The notes under the pieces: generated by a model
Told to the model about the DNA's origin: nothing
Seen by the model: only the letters and a program-made list of their open reading frames with translations
Database searches by the model: none
Translations under genes and position numbers: made by a program
Source: an uncultured Collinsella sp.
Lineage (GTDB): Bacteria > Actinomycetota > Coriobacteriia > Coriobacteriales > Coriobacteriaceae
DNA: 64,000 nt
NCBI GenBank assembly: GCA_900544725.1
Contig: UQWK01000001.1
Span: 15,066-79,065, forward strand
Direction of reading: 5' to 3'
In this document: piece by piece, positions 324-61,318 of the stretch
Numbering within the stretch: the stretch's first letter is position 1
How the letters are laid out: the number at the start of each line of letters is the position of its first letter

Positions 324-420
324 TCCTCAGGGACGCAACACATCAGCCCACCGACCCAAGCATTATGAGTGGGGCGTGCCGGCCAACGGACGCGAGGATT
401 CGCAGCAAAGGCAACGTAGC

Positions 421-546
421 TCCGGCCGGGAGGGGCAGGGCGAGTTTTCCGTAGATTCCGCACGAGCCGAAGGCCACTTAATGTGGCCTTCGTGCGAGCC
501 CAGGACTTGACCGAGCGGAAAACTCGCCCTGCCCCTCCCGGTCGGA
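421..546. repeat. Palindromic repeat element copy R1 (conserved core ttccgcacgagcc...cacttaatgtg; 26-bp perfect outer inverted repeat ccgggaggggcagggcgagttttccg)
   Basis: Core shared with copies at 11397, 13571, 30851, 61196; central stem gaaggccac/gtggccttc covaries relative to other copies. Confidence 0.8.
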
Positions 547-582
547 GCGTATGCAGGGTTTGTGTACGAATCCTCGCGCCCG

Positions 583-11316: not shown

Positions 11317-11344
11317 TTTCCTAGTACGTTAACCGTCCTTCCAA

Positions 11345-11381
11345 AGACCCGTTTCCCAACAGGGAAGCGGGTCTTTTTTTG
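11345..11381 (+). terminator. Rho-independent terminator after rpoC
   Basis: agacccgtttccc-aacag-ggaagcgggtct followed by ttttttt. Confidence 0.85.
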
Positions 11382-11396
11382 TGAGGAACGTTGCCC

Positions 11397-11576
11397 TGAC
11401 GAGCACGTCGGATTCCCGGAACGGGCGGCGCGGGGGTTAAGTTTGTCGCGAGTTCCGCACGAGCCGGAGAGCACTTAATGTGCTCTCCGTGTGAGTCAGG
11501 ACTGTAGAGCAGCAAACTTAACCCCCGCGCCGCCCGTTCCGGGAATCCGCTCCCGCGCACAGAAGGGGATTCCTTT
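11397..11576. repeat. Palindromic repeat element copy R2 (36-bp perfect outer inverted repeat; core gtcgcgagttccgcacgagccggagagcacttaatgtgctctccgtgtgagtcaggactgtagagcag)
   Basis: About 85% identical to R3 (13571-13751) over its whole length, with compensatory changes in the arms. Confidence 0.85.
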
Positions 11577-11578
11577 TG

Positions 11579-11603
11579 CCAAAAAGGGACAGGTTTATTT
11601 TGG
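11579..11603. repeat. 25-nt hairpin ccaaaa-agggacaggttta-ttttgg (GGGACAG-loop family); exact inverted partner at 13530-13554
   Basis: Perfect reverse complement found at 13530-13554; the two copies bracket the ECF sigma/anti-sigma cassette. Confidence 0.85.
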
Positions 11604-11701
11604 TCGGTTTTTCATGCTTGAATTTGAAACATTTCGCCCGACAAGAGCGTATCTATGGTGAGGGCCTCATCAAGAATCATTACCGTCACCGGGAGGTGAT
11701 T

Positions 11702-12220
11702 ATGGAAGAACAAGCTTTTAGACAGGCGGTCGAAGACCACCGGGATGTCGTGTTTCGGATCGCATTGACGTATCTGCGTGATCGCGCTGACGCCGACGAT
11801 GTCGCTCAAGACGTCTTTCTTAAGTTGCTCAAAAGCGACGCGCAATTTGAAAACTGGGAGCATCTTCGTCGATGGCTTATCCGGGTCACGATCAATGAAT
11901 GTAAATCTCTCTTTCGAAAGCCGTGGAGGCGCGTGGAGGATATTGAGAATCTGGCCGATTCGCTTTCGACGGCGCAGGAGGAGACCAAGGCGGTCCTGTC
12001 AGACGTTATGCGACTTCCGGAACGATTCCGTGTTCCCATCGTGCTCTATTACTATCTAGGCTTTTCGACCTCAGAGATTGCCGAGTTGTTGCATGTACCA
12101 GCCGCGACCGTTCGAACGCGTTTGGCTCGTGGCAGATCGAAGCTCAAGTTCATCCTAGAGGAGGGCGACCGTGAAATCCAATCAAATCAAGCAGGCCTTC
12201 GAGTCCGTCCAAGCCGATAG
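11702..12220 (+). CDS. ECF-family RNA polymerase sigma-70 factor
   Basis: Sigma-70 region 2 (DVAQDVFLKL...W..RV) and region 4 (SEIAELLHVPAATVRTRLARGRSKLK); RBS gggaggtga; lower GC than flanks. Confidence 0.85.
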   Translation: MEEQAFRQAVEDHRDVVFRIALTYLRDRADADDVAQDVFLKLLKSDAQFENWEHLRRWLIRVTINECKSLFRKPWRRVEDIENLADSLSTAQEETKAVLSDVMRLPERFRVPIVLYYYLGFSTSEIAELLHVPAATVRTRLARGRSKLKFILEEGDREIQSNQAGLRVRPSR

Positions 12221-13247
12221 CGATCTTGCTGACCGTGTTCTTTATGCCGCTGCTGGTGAGCCGCTTCGTCGAAAGGGTCACGCGAAGCCTCTGTATGTTG
12301 CCGTAGTTGGATGTCTTGTCGGAGTGTTGGCGACCGGAGGGGTCGCCTACGCCGTTGTCAAATCCGCCTATTTTGCCTCAGCCTGGGGAAACCACGGCAA
12401 CGGGGATTCCATCACCTGGACCAACGGCGGCTCATCGGGGACTAAATACACCTACACCAGAGAGTTTGGTGATGGCATCGCGCCCCAAAGCTTGGAGGGT
12501 TCAGTACAGAAGGTCAATCTGTCCGTCGAGGGCAACGGCTATACACTCGACATTCATGATATGGCTATCGATAAAAACGGTTGCGGTGCCGTGACGTTTA
12601 CGTTGTCCAATCCAAATGGTGTTAACTACTACAAGCCGGCAGCAGAGACTGGCGAACTTGTTCTCTATGGTGAAGAAGAACAAGGCATCGGCACGCCCAG
12701 CATGAACTTCGGCGAGGAATGGGCTGATACACGCTGCACAATTGATAAAGACACATCAAGCGACACGGTCATTAACGGCACGATGTACTTTGCCTCGTGG
12801 GATCGCGAGCGAGATTTGGGACATGCGGTCACCTGGAATATCTGCTGGACTGAGGGCGAAGGCGAGGACGCGAAGCTGTTCGAGGCATCGACGCCCGAGT
12901 TTAGCGTTGGAGCGTACGTCGATACAAAGGAACTCCGCTCCGATGACTCGCCTCTCGAGATCAGCCCGTTTTCCATCCAGACGCACATCGACGATCTGGG
13001 CATTGACGCAGTCACGAAAAAGTTGACCGTTACCTACAAGGATGGATCGGAGCAGATTATCGAAGATGACGACGCAGGGGCGTTCAACTTATATTTTTCT
13101 TATACGCGCAATAGCGGAGAGAACATCTGGGTGCCAACGAAGTTGATTGATGTCGACCAAGTGGTCTCAGTAACGCTTGAGGGCACGAGATACACATCAA
13201 CAGGAGAGACCGAAACAGAAGTACCCTTTACCATCGTCTATTCGTAA
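12171..13247 (+). CDS. Putative anti-sigma factor / membrane-anchored protein with large extracytoplasmic domain
   Basis: Immediately downstream of, and overlapping, the ECF sigma gene; single TM helix LYVAVVGCLVGVLATGGVAYAVV after a short N-terminal domain; GTG start uncertain. Confidence 0.6.
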   Translation: MKSNQIKQAFESVQADSDLADRVLYAAAGEPLRRKGHAKPLYVAVVGCLVGVLATGGVAYAVVKSAYFASAWGNHGNGDSITWTNGGSSGTKYTYTREFGDGIAPQSLEGSVQKVNLSVEGNGYTLDIHDMAIDKNGCGAVTFTLSNPNGVNYYKPAAETGELVLYGEEEQGIGTPSMNFGEEWADTRCTIDKDTSSDTVINGTMYFASWDRERDLGHAVTWNICWTEGEGEDAKLFEASTPEFSVGAYVDTKELRSDDSPLEISPFSIQTHIDDLGIDAVTKKLTVTYKDGSEQIIEDDDAGAFNLYFSYTRNSGENIWVPTKLIDVDQVVSVTLEGTRYTSTGETETEVPFTIVYS

Positions 13248-13252
13248 GGTCT

Positions 13253-13288
13253 AGGCCGCTTCCCAAGAGGGGAAGCGGCCTATTTTGC
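13253..13288 (+). terminator. Rho-independent terminator after anti-sigma gene
   Basis: aggccgcttccc-aaga-ggggaagcggcct followed by attttg. Confidence 0.75.
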
Positions 13289-13529
13289 GTTATATGGACG
13301 GTTATTTTGAGCGATATTCGCCTGAATTTCGGAAGTATGCGGCAAAATCTCGATGGGTCGACCACACCGCATATGCTCAAGCGCTCTGCCTGCGGGTTTA
13401 TTATCGCAAAACCCCGGCGTGCTCGGCAGGTCCAGAATTTGCCGCATACTTCCGAAAACACCGCCAATCTACATGTGTTAGTGAGGTCGGATCGCCGCTG
13501 GAGCGTGGCATTTCCCCAGGTAAAACCTA

Positions 13530-13554
13530 CCAAAATAAACCTGTCCCTTTTTGG
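13530..13554. repeat. 25-nt hairpin ccaaaataaacctgtccctttttgg, inverted partner of 11579-11603
   Basis: Exact reverse complement of 11579-11603. Confidence 0.85.
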
Positions 13555-13570
13555 CAGGTAGCGTTGTTCC

Positions 13571-13751
13571 GACGAGCACGTCGGATTCCCGGCCCGGGCG
13601 GCCCGCTGTTTAAGTTTGTCGCGAGTTCCGCACGCAAAGGAAAGCACTTAATGTGCTTTCCGTCTTGCGCAGGACTGTAGAGCAGCAAACTTAAACAGCG
13701 GGCCGCCCGGGCCGGGAATCCGCCCCCGCGCACAGAAGGGGATTCCTTTTG
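13571..13751. repeat. Palindromic repeat element copy R3 (core with gaaagcac/gtgctttc central stem)
   Basis: Same orientation and extended similarity to R2, including flanks gacgagcacgtcgg... and ...cgcgcacagaaggggattccttttg. Confidence 0.85.
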
Positions 13752-18409: not shown

Positions 18410-19369
18410 ATGGGTTTCACGATACTGGGAACAGGCTCGGCACTTCCCGAGCGCAGTGTTTCCAATGACGAGCTGTCCGAGTTCCTCGATACCTCGGATG
18501 AGTGGATTTTTACCCGCACGGGGATCAAGAGCCGCCATGTGTGCACCACCGAGTCACTCGACGACCTTGCCATGGCAGCGAGCGAGCAGGCTCTCCAGGC
18601 GTCTGGAATCGACGCGAGCCAGCTGGATCTTATCGTCTGCTCGACGACGACGGGCGACCATCTCGTTCCCGCGGAAGCGTGCGCCGTTGCCGAACGCCTG
18701 GGCGCCACATGTCCTGCCTTCGACGTTTCGGCGGCCTGTGCTGGCTTCGTATTTGCGCTCGATGTCGCCGAGGGCTATATCGCCCGCGGTCGCGCCAAGC
18801 GCGTCCTTGTCGTCGCCGCCGAGCAGATGACGCGTGCGCTCGACTGGACCGACCGCGCGACGTGCGTGCTCTTTGGTGATGGCGCGGGCGCTGCGGTCAT
18901 AGAGGCCGGGGGAGAGAACCCCCTTGCCGTCGAGCTTTCGACCGCACCCGATGTCGAGACGCTGCGTGTTCCGGGACTGGCTGGGACCTCACCGTTCAAG
19001 GATTCCGCGGACCGTGAGAGTGTGCTTTCCATGAACGGTCGTCGCGTGTTCAAGTTTGGCGTCAATGCAATCTGCGACACGGTCAACAAGCTCGCGAGTG
19101 ACACGAGTATCGCGGTTGAGGATATCGACCATTTTGTATTCCATCAGGCCAACGAACGAATCTTGAGCCAGGCGGTCAAGCGCTTGGGTGTGTCGGACGA
19201 CCGCGTGGTCCGTACGCTGCGCGAGACCGGCAATATCTCGAGCGCTTGCATTCCGCTTGCCCTCGACCGGTTGGCAAACTCCGGCGCTCTTTATCCGGGC
19301 GACACGATCGCCTTAGTCGGATTTGGCGCCGGCTTGGATATAGGTGGCTACCTGCTTCGCTGGAAGTAG
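18410..19369 (+). CDS. fabH: 3-oxoacyl-[ACP] synthase III
   Basis: 320 aa; catalytic Cys context AACAGF, His/Asn motifs; RBS aaaggagg. Confidence 0.9.
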   Translation: MGFTILGTGSALPERSVSNDELSEFLDTSDEWIFTRTGIKSRHVCTTESLDDLAMAASEQALQASGIDASQLDLIVCSTTTGDHLVPAEACAVAERLGATCPAFDVSAACAGFVFALDVAEGYIARGRAKRVLVVAAEQMTRALDWTDRATCVLFGDGAGAAVIEAGGENPLAVELSTAPDVETLRVPGLAGTSPFKDSADRESVLSMNGRRVFKFGVNAICDTVNKLASDTSIAVEDIDHFVFHQANERILSQAVKRLGVSDDRVVRTLRETGNISSACIPLALDRLANSGALYPGDTIALVGFGAGLDIGGYLLRWK

Positions 19370-19421
19370 TTGCACATAGGAAATAAAAACGCCCCCAGGG
19401 CACAAACAAAGGAGAAACACC

Positions 19422-19658
19422 ATGGCAGATCAGAAGACCTTCGAGCGCGTTTGCGACGTTATCCGCGAGACCGCCGGCCTTGACGATGTCGAGATGAAGC
19501 CCGAGTCCACGCTCGAGGAGATTGGCCTCGACAGCTTGGGCACCGTCGAGATCCTCGTCGCCGTCGAGGACGAGTTTGGCATTCAGCTCGACACCGAGGA
19601 GAACCCCAAGACGGTCGGCGAGTTTGTCGATACGGTCGAGGCGGCATTGGAGAAGTAG
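19422..19658 (+). CDS. acpP: Acyl carrier protein
   Basis: 78 aa with phosphopantetheine attachment motif LGLDSLG. Confidence 0.92.
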   Translation: MADQKTFERVCDVIRETAGLDDVEMKPESTLEEIGLDSLGTVEILVAVEDEFGIQLDTEENPKTVGEFVDTVEAALEK

Positions 19659-19660
19659 TA

Positions 19661-20605
19661 ATGCTCAAGACTCCTCTCTGCGACCTGCTTGGCATCGAAA
19701 AGCCCGTGTTCCAGGGCGGCATGGCCTGGATTGCCGATGCCTCGCTGGCATCGGCCGTGTCCGAGGCGGGTGGCCTAGGCATCATCGCGGCTATGAATGC
19801 CGATGCCAACTGGCTGCGCGACCAGATCCACGAGCTGCGCGCCAAGACGGACAAGCCCTTTGGCGTCAACGTCATGCTCATGAGCCCGTTTGCCGACGAG
19901 GTGGCACAGGTCGTGATCGATGAGCAGGTGCCCGTTGTGGTGACCGGTGCCGGCAACCCCACCAAGTACATGAAGGCTTGGAACGATGCGGGCATCAAGG
20001 TTATCCCCGTCGTGGCTTCGGTGGCGCTGGCGCGTCTCGTGGCGCGTCGGGGAGCCACTGCCGTGGTTGCCGAGGGCACTGAATCGGGTGGCCATATTGG
20101 CGAGACCTCGACGATGGCGCTTGTTCCGCAGGTTGTCGATGCGGTGGATATCCCCGTTGTGGCGGCAGGCGGCATTGCCGATGGCCGTGGCGTGGCAGCC
20201 GCCTTTATGCTGGGCGCCGCCGGCGTCCAGGTGGGCACGCGCTTTTTGGTTGCAGACGAATGTACCGTATCCGAGCAGTACAAAGAGCTGGTGCTCAAGG
20301 CAAACGACACGTCGACGCGTGCGACCGGCCGCTCAACGGGACATCCGGTGCGTGCCCTTAAGAGCCCCTTCACCAACGCCTATGCCAAGAACGAGGCTGC
20401 AGGCGCAAGCCCCGAGGAGCTTGGCGCCATGGGTACGGGTGCGCTTCGTAAGGCCGCCAAGGATGGCAATTACGAAGAGGGCTCGTATTTGTGCGGCCAG
20501 ATTGCCGGCATGGTCAAAGAGCGCCAGAGCGCGCGCGAGATCGTCGACGACCTGGTCGAAGGTGCCGAGCGCGTCTTGAAGGGTGCGTCCGCATGGGTGG
20601 CGTAG
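19661..20605 (+). CDS. fabK: Enoyl-[ACP] reductase II (FMN-dependent, nitronate monooxygenase family)
   Basis: 314 aa NPD/FabK family; position fabH-acpP-fabK as in streptococcal FASII clusters. Confidence 0.8.
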   Translation: MLKTPLCDLLGIEKPVFQGGMAWIADASLASAVSEAGGLGIIAAMNADANWLRDQIHELRAKTDKPFGVNVMLMSPFADEVAQVVIDEQVPVVVTGAGNPTKYMKAWNDAGIKVIPVVASVALARLVARRGATAVVAEGTESGGHIGETSTMALVPQVVDAVDIPVVAAGGIADGRGVAAAFMLGAAGVQVGTRFLVADECTVSEQYKELVLKANDTSTRATGRSTGHPVRALKSPFTNAYAKNEAAGASPEELGAMGTGALRKAAKDGNYEEGSYLCGQIAGMVKERQSAREIVDDLVEGAERVLKGASAWVA

Positions 20606-21519
20606 CGTTTCTGTTTGCCGGCCAGGGTGCCCAGCATCCCGAGATGGGCGTCGACCTCATCGAAGCATCGCCGGCGGCCGCCGAGGTGTTCGCGATCGCC
20701 GACGAGGTGCGCCCGGGGACCAGTGAACAGTGCCGGAGCGCCTCTAAGGAGGAGCTGTCGCAGACCGAGAACACACAGCCTTGCGTGTTCGTGCACGACT
20801 TGGCCGTCGCCGCTGCCCTACGCGAGCGCGGCGTGGTGCCTGCCGCCTGTGCGGGCTTCTCGCTGGGCGAGGTCGCCGCACTCACCTTTGCGGGGGCATT
20901 CGATACGCGAGCGGGTTTTGAGCTCGTGTGCGAGCGCGCGGCGCTGATGTCCGCGGCTGCCGAGCGCCATCCGGGCGGTATGCGCGCCGTTATCAAGCTC
21001 GATGCGGCACAGGTTGAGAGCCTGGCCGCACAGGCCGGCGAGGACTGCTGGCCGGTCAACTTCAACAGCCCGCAACAGACGGTTGTAGCCGGAACGCCCG
21101 AGACACTCCAGGAGCTCGACGTCCTGGTAAAAGAGGCTGGCGGCCGTGCGATGAAGGTTGCGGTGTCGGGTGCGTTCCATAGCCCCTATATGGCAGAGGC
21201 GACTGAGGGGCTGGCGACGTATATCCAAGCCGGCCACGCGCCGTCTCCGCTGCTCATTCCGGTTGTGGCAAACATGACGGCGGCGCCCTATCCGGCGGAC
21301 CCCCAAGCGGCATCGGAGGTCCTGGCCAACCAGGCGAGCCATGCCGTGCGCTGGGTTGACACGCTGCACACTCTGCAGGATCAGGGCATCGATACGTTTA
21401 TTGAGGTCGGCCCCGGTAAAACGCTGTCCGGCCTGGTCAAGCGTACGTTGAGCGATGTTCGCGTGTATTCGTGCGAAACGGCCGAGCAGGTCGCAGCTAT
21501 TGCCGACGAGCTCGCATAG
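20593..21519 (+). CDS. fabD: Malonyl CoA-ACP transacylase
   Basis: AFLFAGQGAQ...GFSLGE active-site serine motif; overlaps fabK 3-prime end. Confidence 0.9.
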   Translation: MGGVAFLFAGQGAQHPEMGVDLIEASPAAAEVFAIADEVRPGTSEQCRSASKEELSQTENTQPCVFVHDLAVAAALRERGVVPAACAGFSLGEVAALTFAGAFDTRAGFELVCERAALMSAAAERHPGGMRAVIKLDAAQVESLAAQAGEDCWPVNFNSPQQTVVAGTPETLQELDVLVKEAGGRAMKVAVSGAFHSPYMAEATEGLATYIQAGHAPSPLLIPVVANMTAAPYPADPQAASEVLANQASHAVRWVDTLHTLQDQGIDTFIEVGPGKTLSGLVKRTLSDVRVYSCETAEQVAAIADELA

Positions 21520-21549
21520 CCCACAGGGCTGTAACCCGAAAGGAACGAC

Positions 21550-22323
21550 ATGGGCAACATGAACAACGGCGCGCTCGAGCGCAACGACACACGTCGGGTG
21601 GCGCTCGTTACGGGCGGCTCGCGCGGCATCGGTCGCGCTTGTGCCGTGGGCCTGGCGGAGGATGGCTACGATGTCGCCGTCATCTATGCCGGCAGCGCCG
21701 ATGCAGCGCGCGAGACGTGCGAAGCCTGCGAGGCGGCTGGCGCCACGGCGCGCGCATATCAATGCGACGTGGCCGACCCCGCTGCCGTCAACGCATGCGT
21801 GGAAGCGGTCCTGAGCGACTTCGGCTCGATCTGGGCGCTCGTCAACAACGCCGGCATCACCTGCGATGGCCTGCTTATGCGCATGGGCGACGATGCGTTC
21901 GATCGCGTACTCAATGTCAATCTCAAGGGCACGTTCAACACGACACGCGCGCTCACCAAGACTTTTATGCGCCAGCGCGGCGGTTGCGTCATCAACATGA
22001 GCTCGGTCGTGGGCCTGATGGGCAATGCCGGACAGGTCAATTACGCCGCCTCCAAGGCGGGCGTTATCGGCCTGACCAAGGCGGTGGCGCGCGAACTTGC
22101 GCCTCGCGGCGTGAGGGCTAACGCGGTCGCCCCCGGGTTTGTCGAGACCGATATGACGGCAACGCTTTCGGAGAAGGTACGCACGGCGTGTGAGGAGCAG
22201 ATTCCCCTCAAGCGCATGGCGCGTCCCGAGGAAGTGGCCGGCGTGGTGCGCTTTTTGGCAAGCGATGCGGCGGCCTACATTACGGGCGAGGTCGTGCGCG
22301 TCGATGGCGGAATGGCGATGTAG
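21550..22323 (+). CDS. fabG: 3-oxoacyl-[ACP] reductase
   Basis: SDR: TGGSRGIGRA, NAG, YAASKAG motifs. Confidence 0.9.
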   Translation: MGNMNNGALERNDTRRVALVTGGSRGIGRACAVGLAEDGYDVAVIYAGSADAARETCEACEAAGATARAYQCDVADPAAVNACVEAVLSDFGSIWALVNNAGITCDGLLMRMGDDAFDRVLNVNLKGTFNTTRALTKTFMRQRGGCVINMSSVVGLMGNAGQVNYAASKAGVIGLTKAVARELAPRGVRANAVAPGFVETDMTATLSEKVRTACEEQIPLKRMARPEEVAGVVRFLASDAAAYITGEVVRVDGGMAM

Positions 22324-22364
22324 AAATTAGAGCCGGCACATACATCGGCTTGGATGAGGAGACC

Positions 22365-23615
22365 ATGATGGAACAGAGAGTTGCAATCACCGGCATCGGC
22401 GCTGTATCGCCGCTCGGCAACACCGCGCTTGCCACCTGGGCGGCCATGTGCGCCGGTACGTGTGGCGTCGGCCAGATCACGCACTTCGATACCGACGCGT
22501 TTGCCGTCAAGGTAGCGGCCGAGGTCAAGGGCTTTGACGGTACCGAGTACTTTGGCAAGCGTGACGCCAAGCATCTCGACCCCTGCGTTCAGTTTGCGAT
22601 GGCGGCTTCGGACGAGGCCATGCACGACGCAGGACTCGATGCCGAAGGCGCGATCGACCACGAGCGCCTTGGCGTGTACGTGGGATCGGGCGTGGGCGGC
22701 ATGACGACGCTCGTCGACAACGTCCACACGATTGCCGATCGCGGACCCCGCCGCGCATCGCCTTACATGATCGCGATGATGATCCCCAACATGGCTTCGG
22801 GCAATATTGCGATCCGCCACAAGGCAAAGGGTCCGACCCTGCCCGTCGTGACTGCTTGCGCGACCTCGGCCCATGCGGTGGGTGAGGCGTTCCGTGCTAT
22901 CAAGCACGGTTATGCCGACGCGATCCTTGCGGGCGGTGCCGAGGCGGCTATCATCCCCGACGCCGTTGCGGGCTTTACGTCCTGCCGTGCGCTTACCACC
23001 AACCCCGATCCGCAGTCGGCGTGTCGTCCGTTCGATGCGAACCGCGACGGCTTTGTGATGGGCGAAGGCGCCTGCGTGCTCGTGCTCGAGGGTATGGAGC
23101 ACGCACAGGCCCGCGACGCGCACATTTACGCCGAGGTCGTGGGCTACGGCAACACCGATGATGCCTATCACATCACGAGCCCCGATCCCGAGGCTGCCGG
23201 CATTGCCCGCGCGATATCGCTGGCGGTGGCCGAGGGCGACGTCAAGCCTTCCGAGGGTCTCTACATCAACGCTCACGGCACCTCGACCAAGCTCAACGAT
23301 TCGTCCGAGACGGCGGGCATTAAGCGAGCGCTTGGCGAGGATGCGGCGCGCGCCGCGCACGTCTCGTCGACTAAGTCGATGACCGGGCACATGATCGGTG
23401 CCACGGGCGCCATCGAGGTCATGGCCTGTGCCATGGCACTCGAACAGGGCGTGGTGCCGCCGACCATTAACTACAGCACGCCCGATCCCGCCTGCGATCT
23501 TGACTACACGCCCAATCGCGCGGTTCGCGCCGACCTTACCTGGGCGCTTTCGACCAACCTGGGCTTTGGCGGCCACAACGCCGCCATCGCGCTGCGCAAA
23601 TATACAAGGAGCTAG
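22365..23615 (+). CDS. fabF: 3-oxoacyl-[ACP] synthase II
   Basis: KAS II family; ORF opens at TTG 22350, ATG 22365 preferred (RBS gaggag). Confidence 0.9.
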   Translation: MMEQRVAITGIGAVSPLGNTALATWAAMCAGTCGVGQITHFDTDAFAVKVAAEVKGFDGTEYFGKRDAKHLDPCVQFAMAASDEAMHDAGLDAEGAIDHERLGVYVGSGVGGMTTLVDNVHTIADRGPRRASPYMIAMMIPNMASGNIAIRHKAKGPTLPVVTACATSAHAVGEAFRAIKHGYADAILAGGAEAAIIPDAVAGFTSCRALTTNPDPQSACRPFDANRDGFVMGEGACVLVLEGMEHAQARDAHIYAEVVGYGNTDDAYHITSPDPEAAGIARAISLAVAEGDVKPSEGLYINAHGTSTKLNDSSETAGIKRALGEDAARAAHVSSTKSMTGHMIGATGAIEVMACAMALEQGVVPPTINYSTPDPACDLDYTPNRAVRADLTWALSTNLGFGGHNAAIALRKYTRS

Positions 23616-23618
23616 AGC

Positions 23619-24092
23619 ATGGATTCCAAAAGACTTGCCGAGATAGCCGATGTTATGGAGGACCGCGGCCTCACGCGCGTGCGCGTGGAGGAGCCCGATG
23701 GCACCGCGGTCGAACTTGAGCGCGCGAGTGCCGCGCAGCCGGTTGCCGTGCCCATGCCCATGCCGAGCGCTATGGCTGCTCCGGTTGCGGCGCCCGCAGC
23801 TGCGCCTGCCGCGCCGGAACCTGCCGCGCAAGCGCCCACTGCCGCACCGGAGCCCAAGGGCGTCGAGGTCACGGCTCCCATGGTGGGCGTCTTCTATGCC
23901 GCCCCGGCGCCGGGCGACGAGCCGTTCGTGCGCGTGGGCTCCAAGGTCAAGGCCGGCGAGACCCTCTGCATCATCGAGGCCATGAAGGTTCTCAACGAGG
24001 TAACGGCAGAGGCGGATGGCGAGGTGCTCGAGATTTGCGTGGCCGACGGCGACCTCGTGGAGTTTGGCAGCTGCCTCATGAGAATCGGATAG
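23619..24092 (+). CDS. accB: Biotin carboxyl carrier protein of acetyl-CoA carboxylase
   Basis: Ala/Pro-rich linker and biotinylation motif EAMKV. Confidence 0.9.
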   Translation: MDSKRLAEIADVMEDRGLTRVRVEEPDGTAVELERASAAQPVAVPMPMPSAMAAPVAAPAAAPAAPEPAAQAPTAAPEPKGVEVTAPMVGVFYAAPAPGDEPFVRVGSKVKAGETLCIIEAMKVLNEVTAEADGEVLEICVADGDLVEFGSCLMRIG

Positions 24093-24101
24093 GTGATATC
24101 C

Positions 24102-24524
24102 ATGAACAAAGAAGAGCTTAAAGAACTGTTGCCGCATCGCGAGCCGATGCTTTTGCTCGACGAGGCCGAGCTGGTGGGCGATGAGGCCCACGGCAAGATC
24201 ACGATTGCGGGCGATGAGTACTTTTTGCAGGGGCACTTTCCGGGAAACCCGGTCGTGCCCGGCGTGATCCAGTGCGAGATGCTCGCCCAAAACTGCTGCG
24301 TGCTGCTGATGGGCGATGAGGAAGCGCGTGGTGCGACGCCGTTCTACACGAGCCTGGACAAGGTGCGTTTTAAGCGTCCGGTGCGCCCGGGCGACACGGT
24401 GGACCTGGTGTGCTCGATCACCCGTGCGCGCGGGCCGTTCCGCTTTGCGACGGGTACTGCGAGCGTCAACGGTGAGGTTTGCTGCCGCGCCGATATGTCC
24501 TTTGCGCTCGTGCACGAAAGTTAA
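24102..24524 (+). CDS. fabZ: 3-hydroxyacyl-[ACP] dehydratase
   Basis: Hotdog fold; LLPHREPMLLLD and GHFPGNPVVPGV motifs. Confidence 0.9.
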   Translation: MNKEELKELLPHREPMLLLDEAELVGDEAHGKITIAGDEYFLQGHFPGNPVVPGVIQCEMLAQNCCVLLMGDEEARGATPFYTSLDKVRFKRPVRPGDTVDLVCSITRARGPFRFATGTASVNGEVCCRADMSFALVHES

Positions 24525-24534
24525 GGAAGGCTTC

Positions 24535-25878
24535 ATGTTCGACAAAGTGCTCATCGCCAATCGCGGCGAGGTCGCGGTCCGTGTTATCCGCGCGTGCCGC
24601 GATATGGGCATCAAGACCGTTGCCGTCTATTCCACGGCCGATGCGGACGCACTGCACGTGCAGCTTGCCGACGAGGCATACTGCATCGGCGGCCCACGTC
24701 TTGCCGAGAGCTACCTCAACGACGATGCCGTGCTCACCTGCGCCGTAAAGTCGGGAGCTAAGGCAATCCATCCCGGCTATGGCTTCTTTTCCGAAAAGGC
24801 GAGCTTTGTGCGCGATTGCGACAAGTATGGCCTGACGTTTGTCGGCCCCTCGGCCGAGGTGATCGACAGCATGGGCGACAAGGATGCGGCGCGCCGAACG
24901 GCTGCCGCCGCGGGCGTGCCCATCGTGCCGGGCTGCGATTTGCTCAAGAGCCCCGAGGAGGCGACGGCCGAGGCCGAGCGTATTGGCTGCCCCGTGCTCA
25001 TCAAGGCGCGCGCGGGCGGCGGCGGCCGCGGCATCCGCAAGGTCGAGCGCGTGGAAGATGCGGCAAAGGCTTTTATTGAAGCACGCGCCGAGGGCGAGGC
25101 CGTTTTTGGCGACGGCGAGTGCTACATGGAAAAGTTCGTCGCGCCGGCGCATCACGTTGAGGTGCAGATTATGGCCGATAAGCAGGGCCATGTGTTTTCG
25201 CTCGGCGAACGCGAGTGCTCGGTGCAGCGCCGCAACCAAAAGCTGATCGAGGAGAGTCCCGCGCCGTGCCTCGACGGACACGACGACATTCGCGCGCGCA
25301 TGCACAAGGCGGCGCGTGACCTGGCTCGTGCCGTCGGCTACGAAGGAGCCGGTACCATCGAGTTCCTGTATTCGGACGACGGCAATTTCTACTTTATGGA
25401 AATGAACACGCGCTTGCAGGTGGAGCATCCGGTTACGGAGTTTGTGACCGATACCGACTTGGTCAAGTGGCAGCTGCGCGTGGCAGCCGGCCAGCCTCTG
25501 CCCTTTGAGCAGGAGGACATGCCGGTCCGCAACCACGCCATGGAGTGCCGCATCAATGCCGAAACGCCGGACTTTCTGCCGTCATGCGGAACGGTCACCA
25601 CGTTGCGCGTGCCGGGTGGTCCGCGCGTGCGCTGGGATTCGGCCATGTTCACCGGTGCGACAGTTCCGCCGTACTACGACTCCATGCTCGGCAAGCTCAT
25701 CGTGTGTGCGCCCACGCGTGACGGCGCCATTCGCAAGATGCGCTCGGCCCTGGGCGAGCTCGTGATTGAGGGCGTGAGCGAAAACAGCGAGCTTCAGCTC
25801 GACGTGCTGGCAAACGACGAGTTCTTGTCGGGCATGTATCACACCGATCTGATGGGGCATCTCTATGCTGATGAATAG
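24535..25878 (+). CDS. accC: Acetyl-CoA carboxylase biotin carboxylase subunit
   Basis: MFDKVLIANRGEVAVRVIRA... ATP-grasp; 447 aa. Confidence 0.93.
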   Translation: MFDKVLIANRGEVAVRVIRACRDMGIKTVAVYSTADADALHVQLADEAYCIGGPRLAESYLNDDAVLTCAVKSGAKAIHPGYGFFSEKASFVRDCDKYGLTFVGPSAEVIDSMGDKDAARRTAAAAGVPIVPGCDLLKSPEEATAEAERIGCPVLIKARAGGGGRGIRKVERVEDAAKAFIEARAEGEAVFGDGECYMEKFVAPAHHVEVQIMADKQGHVFSLGERECSVQRRNQKLIEESPAPCLDGHDDIRARMHKAARDLARAVGYEGAGTIEFLYSDDGNFYFMEMNTRLQVEHPVTEFVTDTDLVKWQLRVAAGQPLPFEQEDMPVRNHAMECRINAETPDFLPSCGTVTTLRVPGGPRVRWDSAMFTGATVPPYYDSMLGKLIVCAPTRDGAIRKMRSALGELVIEGVSENSELQLDVLANDEFLSGMYHTDLMGHLYADE

Positions 25879-27589
25879 AAAAGCGAAGACGGTCAATGTC
25901 CTTGAGGGGCCGATAACCGAGTCGTGCGCCGAGTTTCCCGCGCGCCACGTGTTTATCAAGTGCCCGGAGTGCCGCCGTGTGATCGATGAGGCACGCCTAC
26001 ACGACAACCTCGAGGTCTGCCCTCGTTGCGGCAAACACTTTCGCGTGAGCGGTCGCGCGCGCATGCGCATGACGGTCGACGAGGGCACGTTTGAGGAATG
26101 GGATGCCAATCTGGCGTCGGAGGATTTCCTCTCGTTTCCCGGCTATGCCGACAAGCTCAAGAGCGTGAGCGAGCGTTCGGGCGAGCGCGACGCCGTTGTG
26201 TGCGGCAGGGGCAAAATCTGCGGTTGCGATACCGCGTTCTTCTTTATGGACGCCAACTTTATGATGGGCTCGATGGGTTCCGTGGTGGGCGAGAAGATCT
26301 GTCGCACATTTGAGCGTGCGACCGAGCTGGGATTGCCAGTTGTCGGCTTTACCGTTTCGGGCGGTGCGCGCATGCAAGAGGGCGTGACATCGCTTATGCA
26401 GATGGCCAAGATTTCTGCGGCGGTTAGGCGCCACAGCGAGGCGGGTGGCCTGTATATCACGGTGCTCACCGACCCCACGACCGGAGGCGTAACCGCGAGC
26501 TTCGCCATGGAGGGCGACATTATCCTGGCCGAGCCCGATGCCCTGACGGCATTTGCCGGCCCGCGCGTGATCGAGCAGAACATGCACAAGCGCCTGCCCA
26601 AGGGATTCCAGCGCTCCGAGTTTTTGCTGGAGCACGGCTTTTGCGATGCCGTTGTTCCGCGCGGCGAGATTGCGCTCACGGTAGGCGAGCTGCTGGCGCT
26701 GCACGAAGGGCACGCGCCCGGCTTGGGGGCACCGCATGAGATCGTGCATACGGGTCGCCGCGGCAAAAAGCTGGGGCACTTGTTCAAGCGCGCGGCGGCG
26801 CCAAAAACCGCGCTCGAGATTGTCAAGCAGACCCGCTCGGCAGATCGCGCCACGGCGGGCGAGGTGATCTCGCTGGGCCTGGATGGATTTGTGGAGCTGC
26901 ACGGCGACCGTTACTTTGGCGACGACGCCGCTGTGGTGGCTGGCATTGGCTGGAAGGACGGGCGCCCCGTAACGGTCATCGCCATCGAGCGCGGCACCAC
27001 GACCAAAGAGCGTATGCGCCGCAACTTTGGCATGGCGCATCCCGAGGGCTACCGTAAAGCGCGTCGCCTGATGCGCCAAGCCGAAAAGTTTGGTCGGCCG
27101 GTTCTGTGCCTGGTCGATACTTCGGGCGCGTTTTGCGGCATCGGTGCCGAGGAGCGCGGCCAGGGCGAGGCGATTGCCCAGAATCTCATGGAGATGAGCG
27201 GCCTTAAGACGCCGATTGTCTCGGTGGTAACAGGCGAGGGCGGCTCTGGTGGCGCGCTGGCGCTGTCCGTGGCCGACCGCATCCTGATGCTCTCGAGCTC
27301 GGCCTATTCGGTCGTGAGCCCCGAGGCCTGTGCGTCGATTCTGTGGAAGGATACCGAGCGCGCGAATGAGGCCGCCGAGGCGCTTAAGCTCACGGCTCCC
27401 GATCTGTTGGCGCTCGGTATCATCGACGGCATTGTTGACGATAGGGGTCTGTCGCATGAGGAGATCGCCGGCGCCGTCATGTCCTCGGCATTTGATGCCT
27501 TCGATACGCTTGGGCGGCTCGACGACGCGACCCTCACAAACCTCCGCTACGAAAAGTACCGCGCAATCGGTCAGTATCGCACGATGTGA
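25865..27589 (+). CDS. accD: Acetyl-CoA carboxylase carboxyltransferase, fused beta (AccD) and alpha (AccA) subunits
   Basis: N-terminal AccD zinc ribbon CPECRRV...CPRCGKHF, followed by an AccA-like domain in a single 574-aa ORF. Confidence 0.85.
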   Translation: MLMNRKAKTVNVLEGPITESCAEFPARHVFIKCPECRRVIDEARLHDNLEVCPRCGKHFRVSGRARMRMTVDEGTFEEWDANLASEDFLSFPGYADKLKSVSERSGERDAVVCGRGKICGCDTAFFFMDANFMMGSMGSVVGEKICRTFERATELGLPVVGFTVSGGARMQEGVTSLMQMAKISAAVRRHSEAGGLYITVLTDPTTGGVTASFAMEGDIILAEPDALTAFAGPRVIEQNMHKRLPKGFQRSEFLLEHGFCDAVVPRGEIALTVGELLALHEGHAPGLGAPHEIVHTGRRGKKLGHLFKRAAAPKTALEIVKQTRSADRATAGEVISLGLDGFVELHGDRYFGDDAAVVAGIGWKDGRPVTVIAIERGTTTKERMRRNFGMAHPEGYRKARRLMRQAEKFGRPVLCLVDTSGAFCGIGAEERGQGEAIAQNLMEMSGLKTPIVSVVTGEGGSGGALALSVADRILMLSSSAYSVVSPEACASILWKDTERANEAAEALKLTAPDLLALGIIDGIVDDRGLSHEEIAGAVMSSAFDAFDTLGRLDDATLTNLRYEKYRAIGQYRTM

Positions 27590-27605
27590 CAAAGGGACAG
27601 TCCGC

Positions 27606-28844
27606 ATGTCACATTGGGAAAGGGTTCCTGTGTCACAAGTTTCTAACACCTCGTTTACAACGACGGTCTCATCAAACGCCATGGCTGTGGTGGATTATCT
27701 GTCCAAAAGCATGATGTCGGCGCTGCCGTTTATTGTCTGCGCGGCGTTGTTCCGCACCGTCGCCGTCATTATGGGCGAAGGCATGCTGGGCCTGTGGTCT
27801 GCCGATTCCGATATCTATCGCCTGTTCTACAGTTGGCTCTATAACGCCGGCTACTACTTCTTGCCCGTTTATCTTGGTTGGGCGGCCGCTCGCCAGCTCG
27901 GTTGCTCGGAGCAGCTGGGCATGATGCTGGGCGGCGTATTGATTGCGCCCGATCTGCTTAAGCTCGTCGATGCCGCATCGACGACGGGGGCATCGATGAC
28001 TTCCGTGTATGGCCTGCTTCCCGCGCCGGTCAACGATTACACGACGACTGTTATTCCGGTTCTCATCTCGGTACCCGTGCTTTGGCAAGTGGAGTGTTTC
28101 TTTCAGCGCGTTATCCCTAAGGCCGTGGCGTTTTCGTTTGTTCCGTTTGCGACCATGCTTGTCATGGTTCCGGTTTCGCTGTGTATTACGGCGCCGGCGG
28201 GCAGCTATTTGGGCATGCTGTTGGGCCAGCTTATGTTTATGCTTGGCAATTCCGGTGGCATCGTATCGTTGCTCACACTCATGGGGCTTGCCGCGGGCTG
28301 GGAGTTCCTTAAGATCGCGGGCGTCAGCAACGTTGTCCTATCGCTCGCCTATGCGCAGTTTATGAGTGTGGGAACGGATTCGTGCATCCTGATCGCCGCG
28401 ACGATGGCAACGTTTGCCGTTTGGGGCATGCCCTTTGGCGCGTCGCTCCGCGTTGCGGATAAGGACGAGAAGACGCTCATGCTGGGCTATTCGATCTCGG
28501 GTGTTCTTGGCGGCGTAAGCGAGCCTGCGCTGTACGGTTGCGGCTTTAAATATGGCAGGTGCCTGACGTGCATGGCCATTGGCGGCGCCGTCGGAGGCCT
28601 TGTTGCGGCCGTGGGCCACGTTACGGCCTATACCATCGGCATGACGAATGTCCTCATGGTCATTGGCTTTGCCACGGGCGGCATCCCGAACCTGCTGTGG
28701 TGCTGCGCTGCCGGCGGCACGGCATTTGCGGTGTCTGCGGCGCTGAGCTACTGCTTTGGCGTGGTGCCGGCGAAGGGACAGGCGACGGGGGACGGAGGCG
28801 ATTCGCCCGAAACAGTGGCGAGCGCTGCTGAAGTAAGCGCATAA
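27606..28844 (+). CDS. PTS EIIC-domain-like membrane permease (no EIIB/EIIA domains)
   Basis: Polytopic membrane protein with GVSEPALYG (GITEP-like) motif; start choice 27606 vs 27681 uncertain. Confidence 0.5.
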   Translation: MSHWERVPVSQVSNTSFTTTVSSNAMAVVDYLSKSMMSALPFIVCAALFRTVAVIMGEGMLGLWSADSDIYRLFYSWLYNAGYYFLPVYLGWAAARQLGCSEQLGMMLGGVLIAPDLLKLVDAASTTGASMTSVYGLLPAPVNDYTTTVIPVLISVPVLWQVECFFQRVIPKAVAFSFVPFATMLVMVPVSLCITAPAGSYLGMLLGQLMFMLGNSGGIVSLLTLMGLAAGWEFLKIAGVSNVVLSLAYAQFMSVGTDSCILIAATMATFAVWGMPFGASLRVADKDEKTLMLGYSISGVLGGVSEPALYGCGFKYGRCLTCMAIGGAVGGLVAAVGHVTAYTIGMTNVLMVIGFATGGIPNLLWCCAAGGTAFAVSAALSYCFGVVPAKGQATGDGGDSPETVASAAEVSA

Positions 28845-28993
28845 ACCTGTGCGACAAAAGGACGATCCCTTTGTCGTGTTCCAAGGCCGTGGCTCGTGTG
28901 GGCTGCGGCCTTTTGTATCTTGAGGACAAAGTGGCTACACTACAATCCGTTTGAGCAATAGATATATAGGTAGTACCGTGGGGGCGGATGTAG

Positions 28994-30148
28994 ATGGTCG
29001 AGTGGATTGTTGGGCGCGCACAGGGCGATCGTGCGCGTGTGGGCACGTTAGCGGGCATGGTGTGTATTGTCGCCAATGTTGCGCTTTGTGCTGCGAAGGG
29101 TGCCATTGGTGTGGTTTCGGGATCGGTTTCGATTGTTGCGGATGCCATGAACAACCTGTCCGATGCCAGCTCGAATATCGTGAGCGTGCTGGGCTTTAAG
29201 CTGGCGAGCAAGCCGGCCGACCCCGAGCATCCTTACGGCCACGGTCGCTACGAGTATCTCTCGGGTCTGGTCGTGGCGGCACTCGTGCTGCTGATTGGCG
29301 TTGAGCTGGTGAAGTCCTCGGTCGAGCGCGTCATCCACCCCGAACCTGTCGAGTTCTCGCTTGCCCTGGTGGCAGTTCTAGTGCTTTCGATGGTCGTAAA
29401 GCTCTGGATGGCGGCCCTCAACCAAAAGCTCGGCGACCGTATCGAGTCCGAGACACTGCATGCGACGGCTCAGGATTCCAAGAACGATGTCCTTGCCACG
29501 GGTGCCGTGCTGGCGTGCGCAGTTGTTTCGCAGGTGACGGGCATCAATCTTGACGCTTGGGTCGGCCTTGCCGTTGGTGCCTATATTGGCTGGAGCGGTT
29601 TTGAACTCATCCAGGATACGGTGAGCCCGCTTTTGGGCCAGACGCCCGATCCTAAGCTGGTCAAGCACATTCGAGACAAGATCATGAGCTATCCCGGCGT
29701 TTTGGGCGTTCACGATTTGATGGTTCACGACTACGGCCCGGGCAGGAAGTTCGCAAGCGCTCACGCCGAGATGGCGGCCGAAGCCAGCCCGATGGAAAGT
29801 CACGACACGCTCGACAATATTGAGCAGGCGTTTAGGAACGAAGACGGCATGATCGTCACGCTCCATTACGATCCCATCGTGACCGACGATCCCAAGGTGG
29901 CGAGCATGCGTTTACGCATTAACGCCATGGCCCAACAGATTGATAGCCGCCTCTCGATTCATGACCTGCGCTGCGTGCCGGGTCCTACGCACACCAACGT
30001 GATCTTTGACTGCGTACGTCCCTCGGATCTGCAGATGAGCGCCGAAGACGTAAAACACGCGCTGGCACAACGGGTCGAATCGGAATATCCCAAGTCGATT
30101 GCCAAGATTACGATCGACGAGGACTACGTAGGGCATACCCACGAGTAG
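28994..30148 (+). CDS. Cation diffusion facilitator family transporter
   Basis: CDF signature ...SVSIVADAMNNLSDA..., HPYGHGRYE motif, C-terminal cytoplasmic domain. Confidence 0.85.
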   Translation: MVEWIVGRAQGDRARVGTLAGMVCIVANVALCAAKGAIGVVSGSVSIVADAMNNLSDASSNIVSVLGFKLASKPADPEHPYGHGRYEYLSGLVVAALVLLIGVELVKSSVERVIHPEPVEFSLALVAVLVLSMVVKLWMAALNQKLGDRIESETLHATAQDSKNDVLATGAVLACAVVSQVTGINLDAWVGLAVGAYIGWSGFELIQDTVSPLLGQTPDPKLVKHIRDKIMSYPGVLGVHDLMVHDYGPGRKFASAHAEMAAEASPMESHDTLDNIEQAFRNEDGMIVTLHYDPIVTDDPKVASMRLRINAMAQQIDSRLSIHDLRCVPGPTHTNVIFDCVRPSDLQMSAEDVKHALAQRVESEYPKSIAKITIDEDYVGHTHE

Positions 30149-30187
30149 GGCTGCGCCGGCAAAGCAAGTTATACAGAAGGGGAGAGC

Positions 30188-30814
30188 ATGAAGCGTCTAT
30201 ATCTACTCCGCCACGGCCAGACAGAATTCAACGTTAAAAAGCTCGTCCAGGGTCGCTGCGATTCACCGCTCACCGATTTGGGCCGTCAGCAAGCCGGGAT
30301 GGCAGCCGCATGGCTCAAAGCCCACAATGTCGTTCCTGACAAGGTGGTCTCTTCGCCTTTGGGTCGAGCCATGGACACAGCACAGCTCGTCGCAACCGAA
30401 CTCCTTGGCCCGGACGCAGCAGTCGAGTCCTGCGAAGGCATCATCGAGCGCTGCTACGGCACCTTCGAAGAAGGCCCCCACGACGCGCTGCCCACCGACG
30501 TCTGGGAACCCGGCGAGGATCTAGTCCCCTTTGGAGGAGAGGGAAGCCAAGCCCTGCAAAAACGCATGGTAGCCACCCTCACCAATCTCATAAGCGCCGA
30601 GAATGTCGAAACCCTCCTAGCAGTAAGCCACGGCAGCGCCAGCCGCCAATTCATCAAAGCCGCAGCCCCAGAGGGCTTCGAGCTCCCAACAAAACTCCCC
30701 AACTGCGCCATCATGATCTTCGATTTCGAAGAGGCAAAGCCACAAGCAGAAGGCGAGCCAATGCAATGCAAGTTCACCCTCCAGCAAATAGTGGACCCCC
30801 AACAAAGTCATTAG
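30188..30814 (+). CDS. Histidine phosphatase family protein (phosphoglycerate mutase-like)
   Basis: LLRHGQTEFN catalytic motif; 208 aa. Confidence 0.8.
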   Translation: MKRLYLLRHGQTEFNVKKLVQGRCDSPLTDLGRQQAGMAAAWLKAHNVVPDKVVSSPLGRAMDTAQLVATELLGPDAAVESCEGIIERCYGTFEEGPHDALPTDVWEPGEDLVPFGGEGSQALQKRMVATLTNLISAENVETLLAVSHGSASRQFIKAAAPEGFELPTKLPNCAIMIFDFEEAKPQAEGEPMQCKFTLQQIVDPQQSH

Positions 30815-30850
30815 CCTGAGCGAGCAAGGTTTAGCAGACATCAACGTGGC

Positions 30851-31013
30851 GTTCCCAGTGTGCGGCGGAGGGGGCGGGCCTGAGACATATTAAGGTTGCT
30901 GCTCTACAGTCCTGCTCACGACGGAGAGCACATTAAGTGCTCTCCTGTTCGTGCGGAACTCGCGACAACCTTAATATGTCTCAGGCCCGCCCCCTCCGCC
31001 GCACACTGGGAAC
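30851..31013. repeat. Palindromic repeat element copy R4 (inverted orientation; 48-bp perfect outer arms gttcccagtgtgcggcggagggggcgggcctgagacatattaaggttg)
   Basis: Core ggagagcacattaagtgctctcc plus ctgctctacagtcctg equals reverse complement of the R2 core. Confidence 0.85.
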
Positions 31014-31063
31014 GTGCCACGCACTTTACCTGCGTAAACAATGTGAGTGAAATATGAATCTCG

Positions 31064-61195: not shown

Positions 61196-61318
61196 TGTCC
61201 GGAGGCAGCCGGAGGACTTTACTCCCTGCTCGGACAGTCCTGCTCGCACGGAGAGCACATTAAGTGCTCTCCGGCTCGTGCGGAACTCGCGACGGAGCAA
61301 AGTCCTCCGTCCGCCTCC
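61196..61318. repeat. Palindromic repeat element copy R5 (inverted orientation)
   Basis: cggacagtcctgctcgcacggagagcacattaagtgctctccggctcgtgcggaactcgcgacgg; outer arms ggaggactttactcc / ggagcaaagtcctcc. Confidence 0.8.

Follow-up and report, generated by a model that had tools for sequence, protein, structure and literature searches.

A site-stable family of extragenic quasi-palindromes in Collinsella with a conserved core and apparently self-correcting arms

A palindrome family in the window and in related genomes

The window analysed here, a 64,000-nucleotide (nt) stretch of DNA from an uncultured Collinsella sp. (GenBank assembly GCA_900544725.1, contig UQWK01000001.1, positions 15,066 to 79,065), contains five copies, R1 to R5, of a palindromic element in which two long complementary arms enclose a lopsided core. 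In the interpretation that we favour, at about even confidence, these copies belong to an old, site-stable family of extragenic quasi-palindromes in Collinsella, which would be a functional analogue of the repetitive extragenic palindromes (REPs) and bacterial interspersed mosaic elements (BIMEs), with self-correcting arms and a core selected for the binding of a factor, and not a transposon. The evidence comes from the structure of the core, from the way in which the arms vary between orthologous alleles, and from the distribution of the copies across genomes.

A degenerate pattern for the core has exactly five matches in the window (456+, 11453+, 13626+, 30923- and 61250-) and none in 100 dinucleotide-preserving shuffles of it, which confirms the five copies with a shared core described in a sequence-only reading of this DNA. 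All five fold as a single long hairpin (-81 to -139 kcal/mol), with arms of 25-49 bp. The copy originally flagged, R4 (30850..31014), is read on the minus strand; repeat detection places its arms at 30850-30898 and 30966-31014 (49 bp, 100% complementary), and the 67 nt between them (30899-30965) form the core, with an apical stem at 30923-30931 / 30937-30945 and a loop at 30932-30936. R2 (11409..11549, plus strand; arms 11409-11445 / 11513-11549) and R3 (13582..13722, plus strand; arms 13582-13618 / 13686-13722) each have 37-bp arms that are 100% complementary. The coordinates first given for these two copies were too wide: they included about 12-30 nt of flank, which is part of a 204-nt direct repeat on the plus strand. 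The left copy of this repeat (11375..11578) holds R2 and short flanks, and the right copy (13548..13751), 84% identical to it, holds R3.

The arms were initially described as internally perfect, and this holds for R2, R3 and R4 but not for the other two copies. R1 (419..548, plus strand; arms 419-451 / 516-548, 33 bp, 97%) has one G·T pair, and R5 (61201..61318, minus strand, start approximate) has 22 Watson-Crick pairs, two G·T pairs and one mismatch among its 25 arm pairs. They were also described as unrelated between copies; they are indeed site-specific, but in all of them the 5' arm is rich in G+T, and in most an A/T-rich stretch, for example TTAAGTTT or TAAGGTY, adjoins the core.

A search of related genomes with the core, which the sequence-only reading had proposed, covered one genome per species and recovered the same core in at least 120 loci (numbered with the prefix L), many of which are metagenome assemblies. 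Among the matches listed, all come from Collinsella or Coriobacteriaceae, with the sole exception of a contig from a Methanobrevibacter bin. That contig (L038, CAVHBE010000088.1; Methanobrevibacter smithii bin) terminates in a typical Collinsella element, and its placement is probably due to bin contamination. The element set grew from 140 core matches, which gave 114 full copies, to 158-171 unique elements; whole elements measure 105-165 bp and their arms 23-53 bp. Grouped by flanking sequence, the loci form at least 25 orthologous site clusters. Sites defined in this way are common to up to 15 species representatives; thus, the elements are old and site-stable. The number of copies per genome is guessed to be in the tens. 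A viral origin was dropped because a collection of 2.9 million viral contigs contains three core matches only. A full-text search of the literature found no account of these elements, and the core sequence is absent from the part that was covered, 200 of 408 supplementary files, of a catalogue of human-microbiome structured-RNA candidates that lists Collinsella motifs.

Structure of the conserved core

The core is an asymmetric and modular unit of about 67 nt, with three short helices and conserved bulges, and is about twice as conserved as the arms. The apical helix (helix 1) has 9 bp and occurs in ten perfect variants, in which positions 2, 4, 5 and 6 covary, including swaps of G-C to C-G; R1, for example, has the core variant TCGTAGATTCC...CAGGACTTGACCGAGCGG with the apical stem GAAGGCCAC/GTGGCCTTC, and the apical stem of R3 is GGAAAGCAC/GTGCTTTCC. 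Across 56 distinct cores, five of the nine pairs change on both sides, 98.8% of the cells remain paired, and no slid register comes close; the covariation values were reached by none of 500 shuffles. The compensatory changes noticed earlier in the central stems of the window copies are thus borne out by a covariation test. This covariation fits a structured RNA, yet a DNA hairpin would be expected to give the same signal.

Helix 2 always has 5 bp, in one of three registers (CGCAC/GTGCG, CGCAA/TTGCG or CACGA/TCGTG). The second of these is the register of R3, and R2 has CGCAC/GTGTG, with one G·T pair. Helix 3 (AGTTC/GGACT) contains a T·G pair in all 56 cores and one covarying pair, which is A-T in 43 and G-C in 10. 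The outer internal loop is found as a few subtypes, for example TCGCGAG...GTAGAGCAG and TCGTAGA...CTGACCGAGCGA, and a GTAG tetranucleotide is confined to one core subtype. The apical loop is TTAAT in all copies collected with the pattern, which itself fixes CAC-TTAAT-GTG; a relaxed search recovered three copies with a TAAAT loop and one copy (L048) with another apex, GGAGGCGCC-AGT-GGCGCCTCC. In R1, R2 and R5 the G·T pairs lie on the core strand, and the core strand of R5 is predicted to fold at -80.8 kcal/mol versus -69.5 kcal/mol for the other strand.

Mirrored evolution of the arms

The arms of the unique elements contain 5283 Watson-Crick pairs, 29 G·U pairs, 46 A·C pairs and 46 other mismatches, so that 98% of the pairs are Watson-Crick, and the arms are perfect in 94 of 158 unique elements. 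This set of mismatches looks like a raw mutational spectrum rather than the wobble tolerance of selection at the RNA level. Between orthologous alleles, 398 differences are compensated on both arms versus 226 that are one-sided. Indels are mirrored as well, as in GGGGG/CCCCC versus GGGGGG/CCCCCC or in a 1-nt case that distinguishes L125 from L123, and the extent of the palindrome varies between alleles of one site.

Within a site, the arms change fastest of all parts. At the R4 site, mean pairwise difference among ten high-quality genomes, three of them complete chromosomes, is 0.20-0.22 in the arms (with about 8% gaps in addition), 0.18 at third codon positions of the adjacent His_Phos gene, 0.09 in the core and 0.02 in the remaining intergenic DNA. 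No arms are common to different sites among the 25 site clusters, where the longest shared stretches are about 14 nt. The arms nevertheless have a compositional signature, the 5' arm being G+T-rich in 65 of 71 arms whichever strand is read.

Mirrored indels that accumulate at a neutral rate are hard to obtain by independent mutation and selection, from which we infer that one arm has repeatedly been copied from the other. Copying between the two arms, which the sequence-only reading had offered as one of its options, appears well supported by these comparisons: substitutions and indels are mirrored, and the arms, changing at roughly the synonymous rate, stay almost entirely Watson-Crick paired without an excess of G·U.

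Inversion, loss and exchange of elements

The 49-bp arms of R4 are the same as those in L050, L081 and L101, and its core is reversed relative to the flanks. Eighty metagenome contigs covering this site (L121-L200) were gathered with the upstream His_Phos protein as query; 50 have the common orientation and three (L121, L177 and L158) are flipped, and the His_Phos protein of L121 is 100% identical to that of the window. The flipped alleles of the window, L121 and L177 are on arm allele A and that of L158 is on arm allele B, which implies that inversion has occurred at least twice. All ten high-quality genomes have the common orientation, and no flips were found at the other 24 site clusters. 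Although short-read assembly can mis-orient a segment between repeats, the flip at the R4 site is present in separate contigs, in different assemblies and on two arm alleles; inversion at this site is real but rare.

Elements are also lost. Deletions at microhomologies have left part of one arm in L152, L181 and L207, and only the flank in L212; R3 was lost by deletion in L207 and L212. A clean empty site was sought, and all alleles without an element that were found, namely these four, are deletion derivatives. R2 is absent from L107, L205, L208, L209 and L211 and present in L204, L206 and L213.

Alleles of one site differ in their helix-2 and helix-1 modules, and some copies combine left and right halves of different variants. 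These observations suggest gene conversion between copies, although some of the mixed copies may be assembly chimeras. At the R4 site, 22 of the 80 contigs terminate inside the element, and in several the left half of the element continues into a right half from a different allele (L130, L139 and L143-L145) or from a different genomic copy (L135, L142, L186 and L195). The element is either a hot spot of assembly breaks and chimeras or one of real recombination.

Position and polarity relative to genes

Ninety-one of 98 copies face the 3' end of a gene (40 in sense orientation only, 17 in antisense only and 34 between convergent genes), and seven sit between divergent genes. There is no site-level orientation preference relative to transcription, and local GC skew and gene-strand bias have no clear relation to the orientation of the elements. 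The two ends of the element differ in their surroundings. At about 21 sites, a gene boundary lies 3-46 nt beyond the right arm; it is the stop codon if the gene converges on the element, and the ribosome-binding site if the gene is co-directional. In L044, for example, the element ends 13 nt ahead of the thrB start codon, directly upstream of an AGGAGG Shine-Dalgarno sequence. The left arm has a gene within 50 nt at one site only, the R4 site, where the upstream stop codon is 35 nt away. In L091 (1495-4451; also in L053), two copies flank valS, each with its right arm towards the gene; the sense copy lies 20 nt before the start and the antisense copy 15 nt after the stop, and their cores would be complementary in the mRNA.

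The left flank usually contains the upstream gene's own terminator, followed by a WWTCAG[CA][CT] motif 27-100 nt before the arm. This motif is found left of the element in 31 of 52 site representatives versus 5-10 of 52 controls; 48 of its 121 intergenic occurrences lie left of an element, and its density in intergenic DNA is about eight times that in coding DNA. An example is located beside R5 (61372-61381, minus strand, TTTCAGATAG). A role of the motif as a promoter was dropped because inspection found no consistent -10 or extended -10 hexamer in either reading direction, and the left flank was dropped as a Rho-loading site because its bias of C over G is weak. The strongest case for a directional unit is this polarity of the elements relative to adjacent genes.

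In the window, R1 is located between an aminotransferase gene (3-323) and rplJ (828-1349), and has orthologous copies in L020, L024, L029, L056, L084 and L108. A second, outer inverted repeat (393-410 / 567-584; AACGGACGCGAGGATTCG / CGAATCCTCGCGCCCGTT) encloses R1 and is separated from its arms by unpaired stretches. R2 follows rpoC and the canonical intrinsic terminator of that gene (11343..11376, plus strand), which lies between the two. R3 has rpsL 205 nt downstream and, upstream at a distance, a canonical terminator called by the terminator scan (13252-13282). R5 begins 15 nt past the stop codon of a gene for a pyridoxal phosphate-dependent enzyme (59971-61185) and lies antisense to that gene; its other end is 95 nt ahead of an M20 peptidase gene (61414-62808). 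The terminator scan found none between the upstream gene and R1, R4 or R5; thus, the claim that every copy lies behind a gene with its own terminator holds for R2 and R3 only. Promoter-like sites lie downstream of R1 (for rplJ) and of R3 (for rpsL).

Interpretation and alternative explanations

If the elements are self-correcting palindromes, a mutation in one arm would be either erased or copied onto the other arm. The route would be an intramolecular templated repair, by fold-back or template switching at replication or by arm-to-arm gene conversion, and inversion of the core would be an occasional crossover by-product. Copying from arm to arm would also erase a lopsided core, yet the core persists, which points to purifying selection on it. 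The core may most plausibly be a docking site for a host factor, which would read the folded single strand of either a transcript or single-stranded DNA. The elements are located at operon borders: they follow stop codons, precede ribosome-binding sites or lie upstream of the promoters of ribosomal-protein genes. In these positions, as hairpins of great stability, they would insulate transcripts or make them more stable, or else they would function as DNA prone to cruciform formation.

Several points weigh against this interpretation. We know of no factor that binds the core, and the copying mechanism is deduced from patterns of variation rather than from direct evidence. The invariant U·G pair and the conserved bulges are typical of functional RNAs, and a symmetric DNA structure accounts less well for the polarity and the left motif than would a directional unit, for instance an RNA gene that carries its own promoter. 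Chimeric copies and some of the flips come from short-read metagenome assemblies, which are prone to mis-joins at repeats. Finally, REPs are short and conserved in sequence, so the analogy with them would cover role and location, not homology. A different possibility, which we regard as rather unlikely, is that the elements are something hitherto undescribed: either a self-maintaining palindrome, in which a dedicated activity reads the core (for example, as a folded single strand), re-templates the arms, might extend them into the flanks and so persists without transposition, or a new functional RNA motif that depends on a long perfect duplex, for example an internal loop that docks a protein or is catalytic.

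A structured non-coding RNA gene family or a cis-acting RNA module is a credible explanation to which we give only tentative weight. The core strand would then be transcribed from a promoter in the left flank, the hairpin would be the body and the 3' end of the transcript, and the perfect arms would be a side effect of the palindrome. The covariation of helix 1, the constant 5 bp of helix 2 over three registers and the improved core-strand folding that the G·T pairs give R1, R2 and R5 are all in keeping with this, as is the U·G of helix 3, which is invariant on the core strand and would be a C·A on the other. So is the polarity, with a left side that offers at least 75 nt of non-coding DNA, often past the upstream terminator and with the conserved motif, and a right end that abuts genes; directly left of R2, moreover, in the flank within the direct repeat, an extracytoplasmic function (ECF)-type promoter-like sequence, GGAAC-N16-CGTC, was read directly from the sequence (11385-11409, plus strand). 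However, the arms have no excess of G·U (29 versus 46 A·C), no consensus promoter was found, the spacing from the motif to the hairpin varies between 27 and 100 nt, and the R4 site offers 35 nt only between the upstream stop codon and the arm. Nor does a U-tract follow the hairpin: an intrinsic-terminator scan called none of the five window elements a terminator, and the lack of a U-tract places them outside the definition of one. Inverted alleles persist, copies occur in both orientations relative to neighbouring genes, and at many sites, where a stop codon lies 3-46 nt from the right arm, only the neighbouring mRNA, which is antisense, can cover the element. With gathering thresholds, no Rfam 15 family matches the elements anywhere in the window, and relaxing the limit to E<=10 for the R2-R3 region gives only spurious matches to long hairpins, far below threshold. 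The absence of an Rfam 15 covariance-model match ruled out curated families (Collinsella-1, hairpin and hammerhead ribozymes, and 6S), and a tRNA or tmRNA origin was dropped because none was found. A resemblance to the hairpin ribozyme, suggested by the opposite strand (ACAGUCCUG) and by the form of the element as a long hairpin with two internal loops, was dropped as well, there being no model match and the motif being variable among subtypes.

Mobility was the other option of the sequence-only reading, which had paired it with arm copying as the alternative to a structured RNA; the copying stands, and the mobility finds no support in the comparison of orthologous sites, the check for target-site duplications or the Pfam scan of neighbours. 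We therefore consider it improbable that the elements are non-autonomous, of the type of miniature inverted-repeat transposable elements (MITEs) or of hairpin-forming REP doublets (REPINs), with a hairpin or core moved in trans and arms made from the target flanks by inverted duplication at insertion. Such an origin would suit multi-copy, intergenic palindromes whose extent differs between alleles of one site, the presence or absence of R2 in different genomes, and the new combinations in which core modules occur at different sites. It would also account for the outermost arm bases of R2 and R3 (GGATTCCCGG/CCGGGAATCC), which recur as the stem of a neighbouring terminator-like hairpin (GGGAATCC...GGGGATTCC), itself retained in the element-less L212. 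However, the longest flanking direct repeat measures 0-3 nt at 42 sites, no more than in randomly paired flanks, so that target-site duplication does not exceed chance; each site has outer arm ends of its own, without conserved terminal repeats, and no two sites have arms in common. The elements thus fall outside the definition of a MITE, which involves shared terminal repeats and target-site duplication. No insertion sequence with the core was found, and no transposase, integrase, invertase or HUH gene lies beside the copies examined, where a Pfam scan of 23 neighbour proteins returned housekeeping families only. Copies are orthologous across many species, the empty alleles found are deletions, and viral contigs are nearly devoid of the core. 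Still less probable, to the point of being very doubtful, is an inverton, in which the arms would serve as recombination sites and the orientation of the core would phase-vary neighbouring genes. Both orientations do occur at the R4 site, on two arm alleles, and contigs that end inside the element, as 22 of 80 do, are possible at sites that are heterogeneous in the population; a dispersed 70-bp repeat, however, predicts such breaks equally. Flips are rare (3 of 53 metagenome contigs and none of ten high-quality genomes at the R4 site, and none in the other 24 clusters), the arms differ by site and so provide no common recombinase site, and neither a nearby invertase gene nor a promoter-like site in the core was seen. 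With rare flips only, no invertase and no internal promoter, the elements do not fit the definition of an inverton.

Relation to known systems

The closest known kind, by analogy, would be the REP/BIME class. Like the REP, BIME and REPIN sequences of proteobacteria, the elements are multi-copy extragenic palindromes that form stable hairpins, are enriched after gene 3' ends and between convergent genes (here 91 of 98 copies at a gene 3' end and 34 between convergent genes), and are compatible with both DNA and RNA roles. In both cases other mobile DNA lands beside them: here a cassette with 40-bp inverted repeats and an ECF sigma factor gene recurs next to the elements at three or more loci, and insertion sequences are described as targeting REPs (Tobes & Pareja 2006, as cited in PMC7771070). 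REPs, however, are 20-40 nt long, with a conserved stem sequence and a GTAG head, whereas the stems here are 23-53 bp and site-specific and enclose a conserved asymmetric centre of 67 nt. REPs are also linked to REP-associated tyrosine transposases (RAYTs); the scan of neighbours in the window and L091 showed nothing RAYT-like, and there is no sign of recent spread. With stems that vary in sequence and no RAYT gene among those neighbours, the elements lie outside the REP class by its defining features. Long arms that are near-neutral yet complementary, around a conserved lopsided centre, would represent a new twist on REP-type repeats.

Integron attC sites share with the elements a hairpin whose shape is kept while its sequence is largely free, conserved unpaired or extrahelical bases, a location at gene ends and, for the elements under the interpretation proposed here, a function as a folded single strand. 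In attC sites, the base of the hairpin carries conserved R and L boxes (GTTRRRY), and the top of the hairpin varies; here the arrangement is reversed, with a variable base and a conserved centre, and since the conserved part is central rather than basal, the elements do not fit the definition of attC. Moreover, attC systems include intI and a cassette array, whereas here neither an integrase nor an array is present and the orientation relative to genes is not fixed.

Arm-to-arm gene conversion occurs in large palindromes such as those of the human Y chromosome and the plastid inverted repeats, and bacterial quasipalindromes are corrected by template switching. The elements resemble these systems in having arms that are near-identical yet diverge between lineages, a spacer that can invert, and mismatches that are either fixed on both arms or removed. 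The Y and plastid palindromes differ from them in being kilobases to megabases long and carrying genes, whereas the elements measure 105-165 bp. To our knowledge, quasipalindrome correction has been described as a mutational mechanism and not as a means of long-term upkeep for a family of dispersed repeats whose asymmetric centre is protected.

With the invertons of gut Bacteroidota, the elements share a short segment between inverted repeats that is found in both orientations in gut metagenomes. Invertons, however, have family-specific conserved repeats, a nearby invertase, an internal promoter and frequent switching, none of which was found here. Hairpin repeats of organelles, such as those of sponge mitochondria (PMC2800124), are likewise dispersed, intergenic and without coding capacity, but belong to another lineage and size class, and a conserved core with neutral self-complementary arms is not reported in the portions of that source covered here.

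Collinsella is a common genus of the human gut, and the elements adjoin core genes such as rpoBC, the ribosomal-protein operons, thrB and valS. Within about 150 bp they combine an unusual regime, a constrained centre with arms that are near-neutral yet mirror each other, and they offer a compact natural system for studying, in bacteria, how stable palindromes are, how they invert and how intramolecular gene conversion proceeds. A host factor or an RNA function at operon borders is suggested by the conserved core. The elements are also a hazard, because they break and mis-join metagenome assemblies and could pass for breakpoints of horizontal transfer or for invertons.

Other features of the window and related palindromes

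The window has a G+C content of 61% and carries rplJ, rpoB, rpoC, rpsL, rpsG, fusA, rpsJ and a fatty-acid synthesis block, followed by rplC onwards; it is Collinsella DNA of the rpoBC and ribosomal-protein region. Genes were called with a simple codon model trained on the window itself.

R2 and R3 are separated by a cassette (11577..13556, plus strand) that is bounded by 40-bp inverted repeats (11577-11616 / 13517-13556) and is not part of the element. Located between rpoC and rpsL, it has atypical codon usage and encodes an ECF sigma factor (11576-12220) together with an anti-sigma-like DUF4179 protein (12171-13247). The cassette is polymorphic in Collinsella: L210 is without it and has kept a solo repeat. 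The 40-bp repeat adjoins R elements at three or more other loci (L006, L007, L034, L113 and L053). Downstream of the DUF4179 gene, an unrelated imperfect palindrome (13327-13457) has 43-nt arms that are 81% complementary and 45 nt apart, and is also present in L021.

Two further palindrome families with variable perfect arms around a conserved asymmetric centre occur in the same genomes. The second family (L033 7354-7483, L079 2589-2718, L093 3081-3207, L003 6596-6712, L048 592-662 and others) combines perfect arms of 18-30 bp, which are specific to each site, with conserved junctions (ACTCCGCAGACC ... ATGGTCGAGGAC) and an inner stem of 16-18 bp that varies; it has TCCGCA / GGAC motifs in common with the R elements. 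In the third family (L054 5332-5414 and 6652-6726, L102 4006-4078, L104 4826-4898), variable perfect arms of 31-36 bp ending in GAGAAGT surround an 11-nt asymmetric loop (GGGCTTCGCGA).

The usual S10 operon is split in the window by about 13 kb (17457-30814) between rpsJ (17032-17340) and rplC (31274). This stretch contains birA, an operon for fatty-acid synthesis and acetyl-CoA carboxylase, a cation-efflux gene and a histidine phosphatase gene. In L204 the cation-efflux gene directly follows rpsJ; thus, the fab block is variable. The only Rfam match in the window is an S-adenosylmethionine (SAM) riboswitch (RF00162) at 57527-57617 on the minus strand, which scores 45.1 bits against a gathering threshold of 44.4. 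At coordinates just above this riboswitch, three tandem units of 33 nt (CGGAAAAGTGTCGAAATC...) occupy 57737-57835.

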